A DNA stretch of 14,019 bases, taken from IMG/VR virus record IMGVR_UViG_2698536552_000015. The stretch is one strand, 5' to 3'. Both the position numbers and the translations under genes were made by a program. Below are positions 1 to 14,019 of the stretch, piece by piece (within the stretch, counting starts at the first letter, position 1; every line of letters starts with the position of its first letter). This DNA comes from a virus. Taxonomy: Duplodnaviria; Heunggongvirae; Uroviricota; Caudoviricetes. Under the pieces are notes generated by a model that was given only the letters and a program-made list of their open reading frames with translations, was not told where the DNA came from and ran no database searches.

Positions 1-1236
1 CTACGATAACCGCGCATTCAACATGGCTACCTGTTCGTCGTTCATGTCATCAATCCACATACCGTAAATTTCATACACCATCTGCGCAGTTTCATGCCCC
101 ATCTGGCTGGCTATAAACGCCGGGTTCGCTCCTGCCGTCAACAGCCAGCAGGCAAAAGTATGCCGCGTATGGTACGGATTACGGCGGCGAATACCAGCAC
201 GTTTTACTGCTGCATTCCATCTCGCACCCAAACTGCTTACCGAGTAATAAGGTTTCTGTTTTCCGTTACACACTCTGGGCATGAAAACAAAATGCAGTTT
301 TTGCTTTTCGGTTCTGCCGTACTCCCGATGATAAAAAGTGATTTCGCTTTTGCGATGATGCCCGGTCAGTTTGTATTGCTCCTTCAGTGCTTCAAGAGCA
401 GGCTGCAGTAGTGTTACCGTCCGGATCCCCGCATTTGTTTTTGGGGGACCGAACATATCCAGTATCGTCAGGTTTCTTCTGACATTCACAACTCCCTTCT
501 CGAAATCCACATCCTCCCACGCCAGAGCAGCCAGTTCCCCGTGACGAAGCCCGGAGTATACGGCAAATTTCCACAAGTTCTGGCTCTGTCCTTTTTCACT
601 TTCCATTAATGCATTGAATTCTGTTTTAGATAACGGGTCAGGCTTTATTCTGTTTCTCTGTAATTTCTTTACTCCTTCAAATGGTTTGGTTGATATAAAT
701 CCCGACTGATACGCAAAACGTAACAACGAACAGAGCAGGGCGATATAGTTATCAACTGTGCGCACGGTTCTTCCTTTTTTGTTGGATCTTGGATTATCCA
801 GGTAAAGCGTTTCTCCATGCAGCAGTTCATTCCGGTAGTTTAAGATATCGCTATAACGAATATGCGATATCGGAGTACTCTCACAAATTATTATCCTGAG
901 TGTTTTTAATTGTGATTTCGTTTTCTTCATTGTGTTTGTTGTTAACTCTGTTTCTTTAATTTTTGTCCAGATATCACAAAGCTCCCCGAACGTTTTTATG
1001 ACCCTCGTTGTCACCATTTTTGCCCCAGTGCTGGACTGGGGAAAACGTCTTAAATACTCAAACTCACCGGAATTGATTTCATGAACTATCAACGCTCTTA
1101 AATTCCCGGCTTTTTTAATGTTACTGTTAGTAACCTCCCAGCCTTTCAATGTTTCCCGACATCGTTTTCCTCGAAACATGAACCAGATGCGAATGTATTT
1201 ACCTCGAATCTCGACACCTGTTGGTAATTTAGACAT
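1..1236 (-). CDS. intR: Rac-type prophage tyrosine integrase (411 aa), complete; stop codon is the first three bases of the window
   Basis: ORF track 1..1236 (-). Protein begins MSKLPTGVEIRGKYIRIWFMFRGKRCRETLKGW and ends in a tyrosine-recombinase C-terminal region (…NPYHTRHTFACWLLTAGANPAFIASQMGHETAQMVYEIY). Matches IntR of Rac as recalled. xis stop lies 1 nt upstream. Confidence 0.95.
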   Translation of the reverse strand: MSKLPTGVEIRGKYIRIWFMFRGKRCRETLKGWEVTNSNIKKAGNLRALIVHEINSGEFEYLRRFPQSSTGAKMVTTRVIKTFGELCDIWTKIKETELTTNTMKKTKSQLKTLRIIICESTPISHIRYSDILNYRNELLHGETLYLDNPRSNKKGRTVRTVDNYIALLCSLLRFAYQSGFISTKPFEGVKKLQRNRIKPDPLSKTEFNALMESEKGQSQNLWKFAVYSGLRHGELAALAWEDVDFEKGVVNVRRNLTILDMFGPPKTNAGIRTVTLLQPALEALKEQYKLTGHHRKSEITFYHREYGRTEKQKLHFVFMPRVCNGKQKPYYSVSSLGARWNAAVKRAGIRRRNPYHTRHTFACWLLTAGANPAFIASQMGHETAQMVYEIYGMWIDDMNDEQVAMLNARLS

Positions 1237-1237
1237 A

Positions 1238-1453
1238 TCATGAGTCTTTGATAAACTGATTTATCTTTGGATAGTTATACCAGATAATCCCTCGCTTACT
1301 GTCTGGCTTCCCTAAAGGAGATACTCGTTTGAAGTGGAAGCCTTCCACCCAACAGTTCTGGCGGTATGCTTCAATTTGTCTGGCCCCCAGACCAGTGCGA
1401 AGCATCAGGCCGTATTCAACCATCCACTCTTCATTAAAGATTACTTGTGCCAT
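1238..1453 (-). CDS. xisR: Excisionase-like protein (71 aa)
   Basis: In-frame ATG at 1453 within ORF 1238..1477 gives [71 protein letters not shown], which I recall as YdaQ/XisR. Sits immediately upstream of int (xis-int arrangement). The longer start at 1477 is possible. Confidence 0.85.
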
Positions 1454-1552
1454 CGCATCACCTCTGGCAGGCGCCAATGTTAGACTTAAATTGACGCCCG
1501 ATGTTGATTATTAATAATCAGCTATGAAGTTTTAATTTGAATACAATGCAAT

Positions 1553-1741
1553 TCACGAGGACTGAAGTTTCTCGCAATTAAAATTTATCAGTTTTACTTT
1601 CTGCTCTCTGGAAACGCCTGCTTCTTTTTTACCTGAGAGCATTTTTTCGCATTCTGATTTCGTTAGTTTAGATTTTGAATATCTTGTCCAGTTAGTAGGA
1701 GTGCCACCTTCCTTTTCAATAGTGGCGGTAATTTTATACAT
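1553..1741 (-). CDS. ydaC: Small Rac prophage protein YdaC/RcbA-like (62 aa)
   Basis: ATG at 1741 (MYKITATIEKEGGTPTNWTRYSKSKLTKSECEKMLSGKKEAGVSREQKVKLINFNCEKLQSS) inside ORF 1553..1813. The start overlaps the 3' end of the ralR frame by 8 nt. Confidence 0.7.
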   Translation of the reverse strand: MYKITATIEKEGGTPTNWTRYSKSKLTKSECEKMLSGKKEAGVSREQKVKLINFNCEKLQSS

Positions 1742-1928
1742 GAACACCTCCATTATTATTTCCAGTGGTTCGTTTATTTCATCGTTCGAGTGCTTCTTTT
1801 TCACTTCCACCATAACCGGTTCGGGATTCGCATCCGTTACACTTCGCTCGGTAATATCCTGAAATGGCTTTCACCGTTACTGATGGACAACCACAAAATG
1901 GACATGGTTTAACATTGTCATATCTCAT
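1734..1928 (-). pseudogene. ralR: ralR-like gene (restriction alleviation / type I toxin) with an in-frame TGA at codon 50; 49-aa product if terminated, 64 codons if read through
   Basis: Hand translation of the minus strand from ATG 1926-1928: MRYDNVKPCPFCGCPSVTVKAISGYYRAKCNGCESRTGYGGSEKEALER, then TGA (plus 1779-1781), then in frame NKRTTGNNNGGVHV and TAA at 1734-1736. Absent from the ORF track because it is under 60 aa. The in-frame tail matches the RalR C-terminus as I recall it. Confidence 0.55.
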
Positions 1929-1956
1929 AATTTTTCTCATAAAAATATTTCAAGTT

Positions 1957-1983: not shown

Positions 1984-2793
1984 TTATTCCTCTGAATTAT
2001 CGATTACACTGTATTCCCCGGTTAATACAGAGGAATCTGCAGGATCGATTGTCAGTGGTTCCTTTTCATCCATTGATACTGCACGCTGGATCTCAATTGA
2101 TACGGGCAGATATTTGAACAGGCGACGAATAGCCGTTTTCTTTGCCATTTCTTCCCAGTGAGTTACCCACGGCCCGTTATTACCAGCTTTACTCTGGCTG
2201 CGCACCAGCTCAATCTGTTTGCGCGTCATAACTTCAAACTGAGTACCTCCGTCTTTCAGTCTTGCGACAGCATAGACGTGGGTAACAGGGGCATCTTCGT
2301 TTTCTCCTGGGCGGTGTATTAACTTTTCATCAAGGCCAAATTCGAAATTAAACTCGTCACCTTCACGGACAACACGGGCTGACAGGCTGGCGATTTGACC
2401 TGAACGGCGAGCCAGATCAATCATGCCGCGATAGCCAATGATTAGCTGAACGTTTTTTTTACCGCTCTTTTCGTTTTTATTACCAAAAGGCAGTAAATAT
2501 GCATGACCGAGGGCGCTACCGGGCTCAAGTCCGAGCTGTGAACACTGTACGATTGCACTGACAAAACTCATAGTGTCACAGTTTCCTAACGCCGGAACTT
2601 TACGAATTTCTGTGGTGGCGATACGGATCATACGTTCAGCCGTCATATGGCGTGGAAGAGCTGCTGCCAGTTGCTCTTTCATTGATGGCTGGTTAATAAA
2701 ACTAATCACGTCGTTATTTTTAATTGCTGCTGGTGCACGGTTTCCCTGAGTTTTTTGCAGATCGGCTTTTGCGATTGGTGGTTGCTTAGTCAT
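1984..2793 (-). CDS. recT: RecT single-strand annealing recombinase (269 aa)
   Basis: ORF 1984..2850; internal ATG at 2793 gives [41 protein letters not shown]…SVIDNSEE, recognised as RecT. AAGGAA Shine-Dalgarno 7 nt upstream. The start overlaps the recE stop by 8 nt. Confidence 0.95.
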
Positions 2794-5386
2794 TTGCATA
2801 TTCCTTAGCCCAGCGGGGCAGTGATAACGTCTTAATAGCTGGCCATTCATCGGTATTGAGGCAGTCAGCCAGGGTTCGCAGATTGCGGTGATATTCCAGC
2901 TGACCTGCCAGTTTTGCTTCTTCGCCCATCATGAAAATTTCAACCGGATAACGTCCGCATTCAATAGTTGTGCTGGCAACCAGAAAAACGAAAGTTGGCT
3001 GCACTCCAAACTGTGCTTCATAACCGTCACTGTAGAATGCATCCTGAACGTGATAGCGGTAGTCGTAATAAGCGGTTTTGAATCGTTGAATATCCGCCGT
3101 AGTTTTCACGTCCATGATCCAGTGAAATTCAGGGATAATTTTGTCCGGACGGCACCGACACAAAATTGCTGTTTCAGGATCTTCCCAGTAAATTGATGAT
3201 TCAGCGTGTCCGGCGCTTTCAACAAGCCATTGCCCCAGCGGCAAAGCCATAACGCTCTGATACATGAGTTCAATTTTCCGGCCTTCTTCGGCAGTGATAA
3301 CCGTTTTTCCTGTGCTTGCGCATTCCCTCAGAAACGCTTTCTCTTCTTCTTTTCCGGAGTTTGTCCGGCGGTTAAATTCAGGTGCTACGATAAAGCGGTT
3401 ACTGAATTCTTCCGGCTCAAGTACCCGGCAGTGGAAAGCGGTTCCTAAATCGAGCGTTTTTGTCTTTGTGGTGTCCACGGGGGCATTTTTACGCCACAAA
3501 TACAGTGCCGGAGTATCAGCAATGTCATCGAGCTGAGACTTACTGACACCGGGACCCGCGTGGTAATTCTCATTCGAAATTCCGTAATAAATACCTGGCT
3601 CTATGTCTTCTACGATTACGGGATCTGCGACTTCGCCAGTTTCATCACTGCAATCGCGATGCGGATCGCTGCCAGCATTCTCATTGTGCGGATGTTCAGC
3701 GCCTTCCATTTCCTCCGGATCATTTTCCTTAGCTTCAACCTGACTCTCTTCATCGAATGTTTCCTGGTATGTTGCGTCGCCCATCACCGCACCACAGTCA
3801 GGGCAGTTATCCCCGCCAGTCTGGCCGCAGGCATTGCAGGCTATTTCCGGTTCCTGTTGCACTACTGGCTCAGGTTGATTCATATCCGGGCTGGTTTTTT
3901 CCGTTTCTGGCTGGTTCTGGTACACACAATCGCGAGTCTGGATCCCCTTTACCCATTTCGGATCGTTCGGGTCGCTAATTCCGTCAACAAATTCACCACG
4001 TGATGCAGCAAGCAATTTATCGGCATCGACAGGATTTTTTGATGGAATGTTTTTCCGGGCTTCATGGAGTTCTGCCCGCAGTTCCTGATATTTCGCATCA
4101 ACAGAATTTACCTGTGACTGAGCATCCAGCGGCTGCGTGTCCTGATGATGTTCAGTTGCGTCCGGTTCCATTGTTTCAGCCTCTCCCTGTTCAACTGCCG
4201 TTGTTCCAGATGGTTGCGGTTTTTCTTCATCATCCTGTTTTCCTTCTTCTGTTACTCGCTGCGGCATCGGGGCAGAGGAGCGACCGCAGGCAATATCCAC
4301 GATTTCCGGATCAGGGTTGGCATGATCGGTTTCAGTCAGTACTTTGTTCAGATATTCAGTGACGTGCGCGGGGATGACCTCGATCCCAATTGGTGCTTCT
4401 TTTACGGACGCAACCACGATGGCGCGGGAATAATCCAGCCCGCCAGGCATGGTGATGAATTTGTCGCGGAAAACAGAAAAGGGCGGTTTATTTTCAGCGA
4501 TAATTTCCTCAATGCGTTTAGCGTGTGCCGGATGAAGGTTATAGATGTCCAGATCCATTGAACGGGCCAGTACGCCAGTGGCTACGTCCCGCGCCAGTGA
4601 CGTCAGATCGTGTACGAAACCTTCGCCGCGATCGGTGAGGTTTCCGCCGCCAGCATTAGCACCGGAAGCCGTGCGAGTGATGTGTGAAACACGATTACCC
4701 TTCATCCACTCTTTTGTCAGCAGTCCTCGATCGGTGTAGTCAGCGTTCAGGTATGCTTCGAAAAAAGCAGTTATCAGTCCCAGGTTTGAATTACCAGGAT
4801 TAGGGAAAACTTTGTCAGTGTCACGAACCAGTTTGTGGAGTTCGCGAATTTCCAGCGGGTCGAGCAGGCTGGTTTTGTGGGAAACAGCCAGGGCAGTAAC
4901 AGCCGGTAGTTCTTCAGCCCGAGCAATGTGTAATGCCTGGAGTCCGTCGCGTGAAACGTGCGTTACCGGTTTTTCGCTGCCGTGTTGAGCAAGCCAACGA
5001 ATGGGCAGTTCCTGGCCAGAAATTGGGAGTAGCATATTCTCCTCAATCTCAGTCATGTCTTCGCCGTTGACGTTGGTATTGCCTTGATAGTGAGCGTTGT
5101 CTGGTGCTGCTCCCGGTTTTAGTTCCCATGTCATGGAGTCTTTGCTGAGTTGATAGCGTTCACTCCAGGTAAAATCGATCTCACCTTCAGCGGGCAGGTC
5201 ATTAACGACAGGAAAATTCGTGGCAACAGCTTTAAAATAGCTGCTCAGTTTTTTACCTGACTTAACGATCAGGTAGTCCAGAGTGGCACAGGTCGATTCA
5301 AAATCGTTGCTTGCCCACAGGACGACGTCAGGTTCACCGGATGATTTTTTCGCTTTCCGTAACAGGAAGAGTGGTTTTGTGCTCAT
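2786..5386 (-). CDS. recE: Exodeoxyribonuclease VIII RecE (866 aa)
   Basis: ORF track 2786..5386 (-), 866 aa, [33 protein letters not shown]… with an acidic low-complexity middle and a C-terminal nuclease domain. Matches RecE of Rac in length and sequence as recalled. Confidence 0.95.
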
Positions 5387-8245: not shown

Positions 8246-8500
8246 ATGAACCAGAAAACACTTGAAGATGTAATCAAAACTGTTCGCGTTTCTGTTGTGG
8301 CCGACGTTTGTGGTGTCAGCCAAAGAGCAATCTACAAATGGATGGATAACGGAAAATTGCCTCGCACAGAATATACCGGCGAAACAAATTACGCTGAAAA
8401 AATCGCTCATGCATCAAACGGATTATTTTCTGCTGATGTAATTTTAACTATTGGCAGAAATAAAACTACTACGAAAAAGCTGATGGGAGTTGATTCATGA
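8246..8500 (+). CDS. ydaS: Cro-like helix-turn-helix protein YdaS (84 aa)
   Basis: ATG at 8246 preceded by GAGG gives MNQKTLEDVIKTVRVSVVADVCGVSQRAIYKWMDNGKLPRTEY… with an HTH motif. Divergent from racR. Its stop overlaps the ydaT start as ATGA. Confidence 0.8.
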   Translation: MNQKTLEDVIKTVRVSVVADVCGVSQRAIYKWMDNGKLPRTEYTGETNYAEKIAHASNGLFSADVILTIGRNKTTTKKLMGVDS

Positions 8501-8919
8501 AAATCAAGCATGAGCACATCGAGTCAGTGTTGTTAGCCCTGGCAGCCGAAAAAGGGCAGGCATGGGTAGCCAATGCCATTACTGAAGAATATCTGCGCCA
8601 GGGGGGCGGCGAATTGCCCCTGGTACCAGGCAAGGACTGGAATAATCAGCAGAATATCTATCACCGTTGGTTGAAAGGTGAAACGAAAACGCAAAGAGAA
8701 AAAATTCAGAAGCTGATCCCAGCAATTCTGGCAATCCTTCCGCGCGAGCTGCGTCACCGACTCTGCATCNNNNNNNNNNNNNNNNNNNNNNNNNNNNNNN
8801 NNNNNNNNNNNNNNNNNNNNNNNNNNNNNNNNNNNNNNNNNNNNNNNNNNNNNNNNNNNNNNNNNNNNNNNNNNNNNNNNNNNNNNNNNNNNNNNNNNNN
8901 NNNNNNNNNNNNNNNNNNN
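8497..8919 (+). CDS. ydaT: YdaT-like protein; N-terminal 91 codons visible (8497..8769), 3' end hidden in an N run (end inferred from a recalled length of about 140 aa)
   Basis: MKIKHEHIESVLLALAAEKGQAWVANAITEEYLRQGGGELPLVPGKDWNNQQNIYHRWLKGETKTQREKIQKLIPAILAILPRELRHRLCI then N run. GGGAG Shine-Dalgarno upstream. Confidence 0.7.
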
Positions 8920-9030
8920 NNNNNNNNNNNNNNNNNNNNNNNNNNNNNNNNNNNNNNNNNNNNNNNNNNNNNNNNNNNNNNNNNNNNNNNNNNNNNNNNN
9001 NNNNNNNNNNNNNNNNNNNNNNNNNNNNNN
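8770..9030. other. N-masked run (261 nt), no sequence information
   Basis: Run of n in the input; hides the ydaT 3' end and ydaU 5' end. Confidence 0.99.
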
Positions 9031-9814
9031 TACCTGGCTGACACCATGCATTTGTCAGCAGAGGAGCATGGTGCGTATTTGTTGCTGATGTTCAATTACT
9101 GGCAAACAGGAAAGCCAATACCTAAAAACAGGCTGGCAAAAATTGCCCGTCTGACTAACGAGCGATGGGCTGATGTTGAACCATCCTTGCAGGAGTTTTT
9201 TTGCGATAACGGCGAGGAATGGGTGCATCTTCGGATTGAGGAAGATCTGGCATCANNNNNNNNNNNNNNNNNNNNNNNNNNNNNNNNNNNNNNNNNNNNN
9301 NNNNNNNNNNNNNNNNNNNNNNNNNNNNNNNNNNNNNNNNNNNNNNNNNNNNNNNNNNNNNNNNNNNNNNNNNNNNNNNNNNNNNNNNNNNNNNNNNNNN
9401 NNNNNNNNNNNNNNNNNNNNNNNNNNNNNNNNNNNNNNNNNNNNNNNNNNNNNNNNNNNNNNNNNNNNNNNNNNNNNNNNNNNNNNNNNNNNNNNNNNNN
9501 NNNNNAAAAAGTTTGACCCTCTGGATATTGCTTTGCCGAACTGGATTTCTGTCTCGCTTTGGCGTGAGTGGGTTGAATTTCGCCAGGCATTGCGAAAACC
9601 GATTCGAACGGAGCAGGGCGCTAACGGGGCGATACGGGAGCTGGAAAAATTCCGCCAGCAGGGTTTTTCACCTGAGCAGGTGATTCGACACAGCATCGCC
9701 AATGAATACCAGGGCTTGTTCGCGCCGAAAGGTGTTCGACCTGAGACGTTACTCCGACAGGTTAACACCGTCTCGTTACCGGATAGTGCGATCCCGCCAG
9801 GCTTCAGGGGGTAA
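8957..9814 (+). CDS. ydaU: DUF1376-type replication-associated protein YdaU-like; start inferred inside an N run, interrupted by a second N run
   Basis: Visible segments: 9031-9255 YLADTMHLSAEEHGAYLLLMFNYWQTGKPIPKNRLAKIARLTNERWADVEPSLQEFFCDNGEEWVHLRIEEDLAS (DUF1376-like motif), and 9506-9814 KKFDPLDIALPNWISVSLWREWVEFRQALRKPIRTEQGANGAIRELEKFRQQGFSPEQVIRHSIANEYQGLF…PPGFRG*. The two segments are in different frames (+1 across the 250-nt N run). Confidence 0.65.
9256..9505. other. N-masked run (250 nt)
   Basis: Run of n in the input, inside ydaU. Confidence 0.99.
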
Positions 9815-12020: not shown

Positions 12021-12707
12021 ATGACCCCAATAAACATATTTATGACAGTTGCTGATTTCAAACGGCCCAAATTGGAGCTCCCAAACGGGGCAAACAAACT
12101 ACTACTGCACTCTTGCTGTGCTCCATGTTCCGGTGAGGTGATGGAGGCGCTTCAGGCCTCGGGAATCGACTACACCATCTTTTTCTACAACCCGAACATT
12201 CATCCTCAGAAAGAGTATTTAATTCGTAAGGATGAGAATATTCGCTTTGCTGAACAACACGGCGTGCCGTTTATTGATGCTGATTACGACACAGACAACT
12301 GGTTTGAACGAGCCAAAGGAATGGAATGGGAGCCCGAACGAGGGATCCGTTGCACCATGTGTTTTGACATGCGTTTTGAGCGGACAGCGCTGTACGCCGC
12401 TGAAAATGGTTTCAGTGTGATCAGCAGTTCACTGGGCATTTCACGCTGGAAAAATATGCAGCAGGTTAACGACTGTGGGCGGCGAGCCGTCGCGCATTAT
12501 CCGGGCATGGTGTACTGGGATTATAACTGGCGCAAGCAGGGCGGCTCGTCCCGTATGATTGAAATCAGCAAGCGCGAAAAATTCTATCAGCAGGAATATT
12601 GTGGCTGTGTGTATTCTCTGCGCGATACCAATCTACACCGCAAATCTCAGGGACGCCCTCTTATCAAAATTGGTCAACTCCACTACGGTAAAGAAGAGAA
12701 GGAGTGA
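12021..12707 (+). CDS. queH: QueH-like epoxyqueuosine reductase (DUF208 family), 228 aa
   Basis: ORF track 12021..12707. Motifs as I recall for QueH/DUF208: [23 protein letters not shown], and C-terminal YCGCVYSL. No obvious Shine-Dalgarno; the true start may be the ATG at 12042. Confidence 0.65.
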
Positions 12708-12758: not shown

Positions 12759-12819
12759 GACTGCGGGTGCTTGAGGCTATCTGCTTCAGGCATGAACACC
12801 AAAAGGCAGATAGAGAAAA

Positions 12820-12886
12820 GCCCCAGTTAACATTACGCGTCCGGCAAGACGCTTAACATTAATCTGAGGCCAATTTCATGCTTTGC
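12820..12886 (-). ncRNA. Candidate Sok-like antisense RNA overlapping the mok translation start (coordinates approximate)
   Basis: Minus-strand promoter-like hexamers TTGCCT (complement of 12916-12921), 17-nt spacer, TAACCT (complement of 12893-12898). Position relative to mok/hok matches the known hok/sok organisation. The 3' end is not defined. Confidence 0.25.
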
Positions 12887-13090
12887 ACATGTAGGTTAGC
12901 CTCTTACATGCCGAAAGGCAAGGAGAAGCAGGCTATGAAGCAGCAAAAGGCGATGTTAATCGCCCTGATCGTCATCTGTTTAACCGTCATAGTGACGGCA
13001 CTGGTAACGAGGAAAGACCTCTGTGAGGTACGAATCCGAACCGGCCAGACGGAGGTCGCTGTCTTCGTAGACTACGAATCCAGGAAGTAA
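12878..13090 (+). CDS. Mok-like reading frame (70 aa): in-frame N-terminal extension of hok, as in mokC/hokC
   Basis: ATG at 12878 in the same frame as hok (MLCTCRLASYMPKGKEKQA + Hok), the same arrangement as the chromosomal mokC/hokC pair as recalled. Confidence 0.5.
   Translation: MLCTCRLASYMPKGKEKQAMKQQKAMLIALIVICLTVIVTALVTRKDLCEVRIRTGQTEVAVFVDYESRK
12935..13090 (+). CDS. Hok/Gef-family type I toxin (51 aa), HokC/HokD-like membrane peptide
   Basis: MKQQKAMLIALIVICLTVIVTALVTRKDLCEVRIRTGQTEVAVFVDYESRK carries the family signature LVTRKDLCEV-IRTGQTEVAVF. AAGGAGAAG Shine-Dalgarno upstream. Confidence 0.9.
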   Translation: MKQQKAMLIALIVICLTVIVTALVTRKDLCEVRIRTGQTEVAVFVDYESRK

Positions 13091-13665: not shown

Positions 13666-14019
13666 ATGGCACATATACAACTGGTCAAACAAACCTCTTC
13701 CGGATTACTTCTCCCGGCGACGCCGGAGAGTTGCGATTTTCTGCATCAAATCAAAATAGGTGAGTGGATACACGCAGACTTTAAGCGTGTGTGTAACTAC
13801 GCATTCCACAAGCGTTTTTTCAAACTCCTGCAACTGGGTTTCGATTACTGGACTCCGGTCGGTGGGGCGATCACGCCTCGCGAACGAAAACTGGTGTCCG
13901 GTTTCGTTGATTACCTGTGTGAATCAGTAGGCCGGGAACATACGCCAGCTCTGAGCGAAGCCGCAGAGCAATTGAGGTGTACTGGCAATAGCGGACACTA
14001 CCATTTGTTCTTTTTTTAA
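13666..14019 (+). CDS. Conserved lambdoid nin-region-like hypothetical protein (117 aa from ATG 13666); stop codon is the last three bases of the window
   Basis: ORF 13624..14019 starts at a TTG; the ATG at 13666 has a GGAGAAAG Shine-Dalgarno and gives MAHIQLVKQTSSGLLLPATPESCDFLHQIKIGEWIHADFKRV…. Resembles prophage proteins I associate with a DUF family of nin regions, but I cannot name the family reliably. Confidence 0.55.
   Translation: MAHIQLVKQTSSGLLLPATPESCDFLHQIKIGEWIHADFKRVCNYAFHKRFFKLLQLGFDYWTPVGGAITPRERKLVSGFVDYLCESVGREHTPALSEAAEQLRCTGNSGHYHLFFF

Follow-up and report, generated by a model that had tools for sequence, protein, structure and literature searches.

Rac-type prophage and its genes

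The window, i.e., the whole stretch of 14,019 nt that was analysed, was recognised as the left part of a Rac-type prophage from its ORFs, the Pfam matches, and the annotation of identical loci. On the minus strand lie intR (1..1236), xisR (1238..1477), recT (from 1984), and recE (2786..5386), and the interval between xisR and recT holds ralR, rcbA, and ralA. The remaining part of the window encodes SieB, repressor-like helix-turn-helix proteins, YdaT/YdaU-like proteins, QueH (12021..12707, plus strand), and a type I toxin-antitoxin hok/sok locus (12765..13090), which consists of a sok RNA (12765..12940, plus strand; Rfam RF01794, 117 bits) and a Hok/Gef ORF of 70 aa (12878..13090, plus strand). 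An ORF of 339 aa (8497..9516, plus strand) carries an N-terminal YdaT_toxin piece followed by a DUF1376 (YdaU-like) domain; since the two domains are separate genes in K-12, this ORF may be a deletion fusion. The last 47 nt of the window (13973..14019) matched the end of IS600. None of the complete E. coli genomes covered at least 80% of the window in one place, and the best of them covered 79% at 96.8% identity. This Rac variant is thus a mosaic that is not represented intact among the complete E. coli genomes.

Premature stop codon in ralR

The ralR frame starts at the ATG 1928..1926 on the minus strand and runs for 49 codons up to SEKEALER, where a TGA (1781..1779) takes the place of codon 50; a further 14 in-frame codons then lead to a TAA (1736..1734). 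Minus-strand translation of 1734-1928 gave MRYDNVKPCPFCGCPSVTVKAISGYYRAKCNGCESRTGYGGSEKEALER, a stop, NKRTTGNNNGGVHV, and a second stop, in exact agreement with the interrupted frame described in the earlier note. The truncated CDS (49 codons and TGA; 1779..1928, minus strand) was supported by translation, Pfam, and PGAP, and the orphaned 3' part (codons 51-64 and TAA; 1734..1778, minus strand) is in frame and identical to that of K-12.

As proposed in the same note, a single TGG-to-TGA change at codon 50 accounts for the stop. The aligned codon of K-12 MG1655 is TGG (Trp), and the protein became identical to RALR_ECOLI when the TGA was replaced by Trp. Over the approximately 500 nt of ralR, ralA, and rcbA that were aligned, the window differed from K-12 at only 4 sites. 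Codon 50 of ralR is the sole non-synonymous difference from K-12 RalR. Codon 49 is CGA in the window and AGA in K-12, which is a synonymous difference, the T run upstream of ralR (about 1941..1945, minus strand) is 1 nt shorter than in K-12, and codon 63 of rcbA is a TGA stop in the window and AGA (Arg) in K-12. A second in-frame ATG was also noticed 4 codons upstream of the annotated ralR start (1938..1940, minus strand; MRKIMRYDN...).

RalA and the neighbouring rcbA gene

The gene of the antitoxin small RNA RalA is present at full length (1557..1735, plus strand). It matched Rfam RF02694 over model positions 1-179 of 179 with 225.1 bits, where the gathering score is 170, and its coordinates agree with those of K-12 b4714. 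The 16-nt repeat through which the toxin mRNA and RalA pair has been defined previously (PMC4041452). In the window, the copy in the ralR mRNA, AAGTGAAAAAGAAGCA, covers codons 42-46 (1791..1806, minus strand) and is identical to that of K-12. The complementary copy within RalA, TGCTTCTTTTTTACCT, was read from the sequence at 1619..1634 (plus strand); its start is 62 nt downstream of the 5' end of RalA, in agreement with the published position (PMC4041452), and this copy is likewise identical to that of K-12. The two copies form 11 contiguous perfect pairs. A disturbance of RalA pairing by the stop mutation was ruled out, since the 16-nt repeat is unchanged and its end is 10 nt away from the TGA codon, on the upstream side.

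The rcbA gene (ydaC, DUF1187) encodes 62 aa at 1553..1741 on the minus strand (Pfam PF06688, 132 bits; annotated by PGAP as WP_001302840.1 in the carriers of the stop). Its Shine-Dalgarno sequence GGAGG (1747..1751, minus strand) is situated 5 nt before the ATG at 1741, and both elements are inside the orphaned ralR segment. The stop of ralR and the start of rcbA overlap in K-12 (ATGTATAA), as is typical of translationally coupled genes. Since ralR translation stops 37 nt earlier in the window than in K-12, any ralR-rcbA coupling would be lost; the strong Shine-Dalgarno sequence should still permit independent initiation of rcbA.

The G-to-A change as the source of an internal rcbA promoter was also considered and judged to be a matter of chance. 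The promoter-like match that includes the mutated base (1782..1755, minus strand; ATGAAA, a 16-nt spacer, and AATAAT) is weak (9/12), the scan returned 4 sites of this kind where chance predicts 1.9 +/- 1.4, and transcription from this match would start inside the rcbA Shine-Dalgarno sequence. At its other end, rcbA terminates at the TGA 1553..1555 (minus strand), where the AGA of K-12 adds 7 codons and gives a protein of 69 aa. The 62-aa form was found in every non-K-12 locus retrieved, so K-12 rcbA looks like a stop-loss variant. The base that varies at this end precedes the mapped 5' end of RalA by 2 nt.

Frequency and annotation of the allele

The frequencies of the two alleles were determined with 55-nt queries centred on the variable base. 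Since the megablast search required an exact word of 28 nt, every seed contained that base. The TGA form was detected in 310 of the 5426 complete E. coli genomes, always as the identical CGA-TGA haplotype and with 100% identity over the 55-mer. Codon 50 of reference ralR genes, which the earlier note had proposed to look up, was TGG in K-12 and in at least 1310 of the 5426 genomes. The ralR region as such is present in 1915 of them, and approximately 295 of these region carriers gave no match to either query, which variation close to the codon presumably explains.

Carriers of the TGA form include O157:H7 strains (ATCC 43890, ATCC 43894, 86-24, and others), O55:H7, O111:H8, O26, and O103, together with many human clinical non-STEC strains, and the allele occurs in several phylogroups. 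Furthermore, the exact 49-aa protein was found on at least 1000 contigs in a public protein collection, under RalR or Lar names. The stop could in principle be an error of sequencing or assembly, or a mutation that arose recently and only in the source strain, but nothing favours either of these beyond the general expectation that a single-base stop may be erroneous. An error was ruled out because the same 55-mer occurs in 310 complete genomes that come independently from many laboratories and sequencing platforms, and because the protein is found on the 1000 or more contigs; a private mutation was ruled out by the carrier genomes and by the several flanking haplotypes on which the allele is found. 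The chance that either of them explains the stop is practically negligible.

The sequence of the W50* allele is already known, being catalogued in RefSeq and UniRef. In all ten carrier loci retrieved, PGAP annotated a ralR CDS of 150 nt (WP_001443846.1) without a pseudogene flag, and the RefSeq name of the 49-aa product is the unflagged "endodeoxyribonuclease toxin RalR". In these loci, recE, recT, the DUF1187 gene rcbA, xisR, and intR also have ordinary CDS annotation. A search of open-access papers and bioRxiv found no publication on the truncated allele.

Origin and spread of the allele

Ten carrier sequences, namely the window and nine carrier loci, were compared with each other. They are identical from -607 to +292 nt around the stop, which makes up an invariant block of approximately 0.9 kb. 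Outside this block, the carriers differ at 1 to 200 sites over 4.3 kb, members of the main group at 0-1, and they bear at least three intR/recE haplotypes. The main group comprises O111, O157:H7, and several clinical strains, and the window differs from it at 10-11 sites. The O26/O103-type group, whose intR is K-12-like, is 46-48 sites away from the main group and 54-55 from the window, and the O55:H7 carrier shows 145-200 site differences, mostly in recE.

Codon 49 is CGA in all 310 TGA alleles, which argues for one origin, and the invariant block with its divergent flanks argues for one origin followed by recombination and spread. These sequence comparisons point to W50* as a widespread single-origin polymorphism, of sufficient age for recombination to have placed it on several flanks and for it to have reached different phylogroups. 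The mutation would have arisen once, on a K-12-like ralR haplotype with CGA at codon 49, and would then have spread among E. coli lineages, both vertically and horizontally, with recombination of the flanks. The combination of TGG with CGA at codon 49 was found in O145, ML35, L73, ST2747, and O157 7.1_Anguil (loci L009-L013). These loci carry a different module, with a RecT-family protein of 350 aa and a longer RecE of approximately 1020-1040 aa, and the 5' half of their ralR differs from that of the window, so that a mosaic junction between Rac variants lies inside ralR.

The preserved frame downstream of the stop had been taken as a sign that the change is recent. The presence of the allele in 310 complete genomes across serotypes and on several flanking haplotypes contradicts this view, and since the whole block of approximately 0.9 kb is invariant in the compared carriers, the intact frame gives no information on dating. 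For the same lack of variation, dating and selection tests on the short ORF are impossible.

Effect of the stop on RalR

The 49-aa product still matched the Pfam family Lar_restr_allev (PF14354) above the gathering score, with 39 bits against a cut-off of 28.6, and the W-restored 64-aa form reached 53.5 bits. The product keeps the four-cysteine zinc-ribbon motif (C9, C12, C30, and C33, together with P10 and F11). The C-terminal W-N and the conserved R (WN[KR]R) are absent from the primary product: the stop replaces W50 itself, and N51 and R53 are encoded downstream of it and present only in a readthrough product.

A profile-free search was performed with P0004, a 64-aa E. coli RalR with 92% identity, as the query. 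It found 1690 Lar-family representatives, whose matches typically extend to RalR positions 52-57. Conservation was read from an alignment of 59 single-domain Lar-family proteins with 33-77% identity. Only C9, P10, F11, C12, C30, C33, W50, and N51 are invariant in it, and G13, A46, and R53 are conserved in at least 90% of the proteins. The window shares with the Lar family the CPFCG...C..C zinc ribbon and the helix that follows, whereas the W-N and the near-invariant R found in all 59 relatives are missing from its primary product. The earlier note had regarded a reference RalR that naturally ends at ...ALER as evidence against an interrupted frame. Such a reference exists formally, for WP_001443846.1 is exactly the 49-aa protein; as evidence on the family it carries no weight, since 0 of the 59 aligned members ends before the W-N motif, and the entry reflects the annotation of this very allele.

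In an AlphaFold model of moderate confidence (pLDDT 76.6), RalR has a beta-hairpin at 17-30, a helix at 43-53 that includes W50, and a disordered tail at 57-64. Foldseek returned weak zinc-ribbon matches alone (E >=0.15) and no nuclease fold. A sequence search of the PDB gave no meaningful match and no solved relative, and its CbpD matches were dismissed as chance.

The form of RalR with tested toxicity and DNase activity is the 64-aa protein of K-12 (PMC4041452), and changing residues 43-46, in the same helix, abolishes its toxicity (Guo et al., 2014; PMC4041452). That study described RalR as a non-specific DNase that did not inhibit restriction-modification; the role in restriction alleviation that the earlier note had quoted is therefore disputed. 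With the stop in place, the main product would be the 49 residues with the four-cysteine zinc-ribbon part, and it would lose the last turn of the C-terminal helix (Trp50-Asn51 and Arg53) as well as a non-conserved disordered tail. From the cut in this conserved helix and the loss of toxicity on changing residues 43-46, the 49-aa product is most likely non-toxic or strongly weakened, as far as alignment and model can tell. Given the invariance of W50 and N51 across the family, a nonsense mutation that disables the toxin, one of the explanations offered originally, accounts best for the allele.

Several observations point the other way. The zinc ribbon and residues 43-46 are retained, the Pfam threshold is passed, and PGAP makes no pseudogene call, so the product may keep some activity. 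The high frequency of the allele and its occurrence in several phylogroups would likewise be compatible with a functional variant that is tolerated or even favoured. Carried further, these observations would make the 49-aa protein a functional short RalR/Lar isoform, either toxic or modulating type I restriction, which is kept by selection and for which the TGA is the normal stop. We consider such an isoform unlikely. Its helix would be cut at the last turn, and it would have to dispense with two family-invariant residues and with R53, although no aligned relative ends so early. Moreover, the carrier block is without variation, so that nothing indicates purifying selection on the short form, and hitch-hiking with a successful Rac variant explains the high frequency equally well.

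Since RalA, its 16-nt pairing site, and rcbA are unchanged, the locus is most likely a type I toxin-antitoxin pair with the toxin disabled and the antitoxin intact. Altogether, it is probable that W50* is a genuine inherited nonsense allele, of single origin and since spread, in which the toxin is disabled or a strong hypomorph beside an intact antitoxin.

Decoding of the UGA codon

In E. coli, Trp-tRNA decodes UGA at low frequency, and leaky UGA codons receive Trp (PMC7918605). As codon 50 originally specified Trp, readthrough of the stop would yield authentic RalR. In K-12 reporter constructs, Trp-tRNA read approximately 2% of UGA at 37 C and approximately 4% at 25 C (PMC10570021), figures that come from a different sequence context, so that other strains and the present context may give much less. 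This decoding of UGA as Trp varies with temperature and cAMP (PMC10570021). By analogy with these reporters, a few per cent of the ribosomes, or less, would insert Trp and complete authentic full-length RalR, and the allele would accordingly be a strong hypomorph and not an absolute null.

The same properties could suggest that the UGA is kept for regulated or programmed decoding, in which low, condition-dependent Trp readthrough, or selenocysteine, doses the toxin. Readthrough occurs at the per-cent level and responds to growth conditions, it would restore exactly the native residue, and the downstream frame is intact in all carriers. However, the 76 nt around and after the stop (1715..1790, minus strand) fold with only -8.3 kcal/mol (z-score 0.07), with no hairpin by the stop, and selenocysteine or another structured recoding signal was ruled out, as there is no SECIS-like stem-loop downstream of the UGA. 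The intact downstream frame is uninformative here as well, since the entire 0.9-kb block is invariant, and its 42 nt hold the rcbA Shine-Dalgarno sequence and start and the ralA 3' end, so that they are constrained anyway. Finally, most ralR genes have TGG at this codon. Programmed decoding is therefore quite improbable. In its boldest version, the UGA would be a natural dosage valve, through which Trp readthrough dependent on growth state, temperature, or cAMP restores RalR in a minor and variable share of the cells, and this would be the reason for its spread among pathogenic lineages. We regard that proposal as very improbable; if it were true, a lethal DNase would be turned into a stochastic, low-dose one.

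Comparison with known systems and other ralR lesions

The locus corresponds to that of the RalR/RalA pair of the K-12 Rac prophage (b1348/b4714; PMC4041452), with the order recE-recT-ralR-rcbA/ralA-xisR-intR next to ttcA in the carriers. The window matches K-12 exactly in the 49 residues that remain, in the RalA RNA, and in both 16-nt repeats, whereas the TGA at codon 50 deprives the window product of residues 50-64; the lesser differences are CGA in place of AGA at codon 49, an RcbA of 62 instead of 69 aa, and the shortened T run. Decayed chromosomal type I toxins, such as the inactive hok-like loci of K-12 (PMC4041452), are comparable in that a toxin is disabled by a point change while the gene of the antisense RNA remains. 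The present case differs from them in two ways: the lesion consists of one leaky UGA in place of a Trp codon, and the allele is not fixed but polymorphic within E. coli.

Other lesions of ralR were found in public data. The C-terminus is frameshifted in three proteins (P0003, P0005, and P0019), and RalR is fused to YdaC (DUF1187) in two (P0012 and P0015). In P0012, RalR residues 1-46 are joined to the C-terminus of YdaC, the outcome expected of a deletion between the two direct 16-nt repeats. Two further proteins (P0011 and P0013) are derivatives of the 49-aa form. P0002 (locus L016, 537..770), from a single Logan assembly, has W50S (TCG); it was ruled out as a revertant of the stop, since its TCG stands on the AGA background at codon 49 and represents an independent change of TGG. 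Such a range of lesions is in keeping with relaxed constraint on a toxin gene that resides in a cryptic prophage.

Implications for toxin-antitoxin inventories

The feature is real and most likely an ordinary loss-of-function polymorphism, and its main use is as an annotation caveat and a guide to the choice of strains for toxin-antitoxin inventories. Despite its unflagged toxin name, the 49-aa product is without two of the eight invariant residues of the family. Inventories of O157:H7, O26, O111, O103, and many clinical strains thus probably count a disabled toxin as an active one, and studies of RalR/RalA or of Rac physiology outside K-12 should check codon 50. Should the truncated form prove active, which is the less likely outcome, the minimal functional core of the Lar family would thereby be defined.
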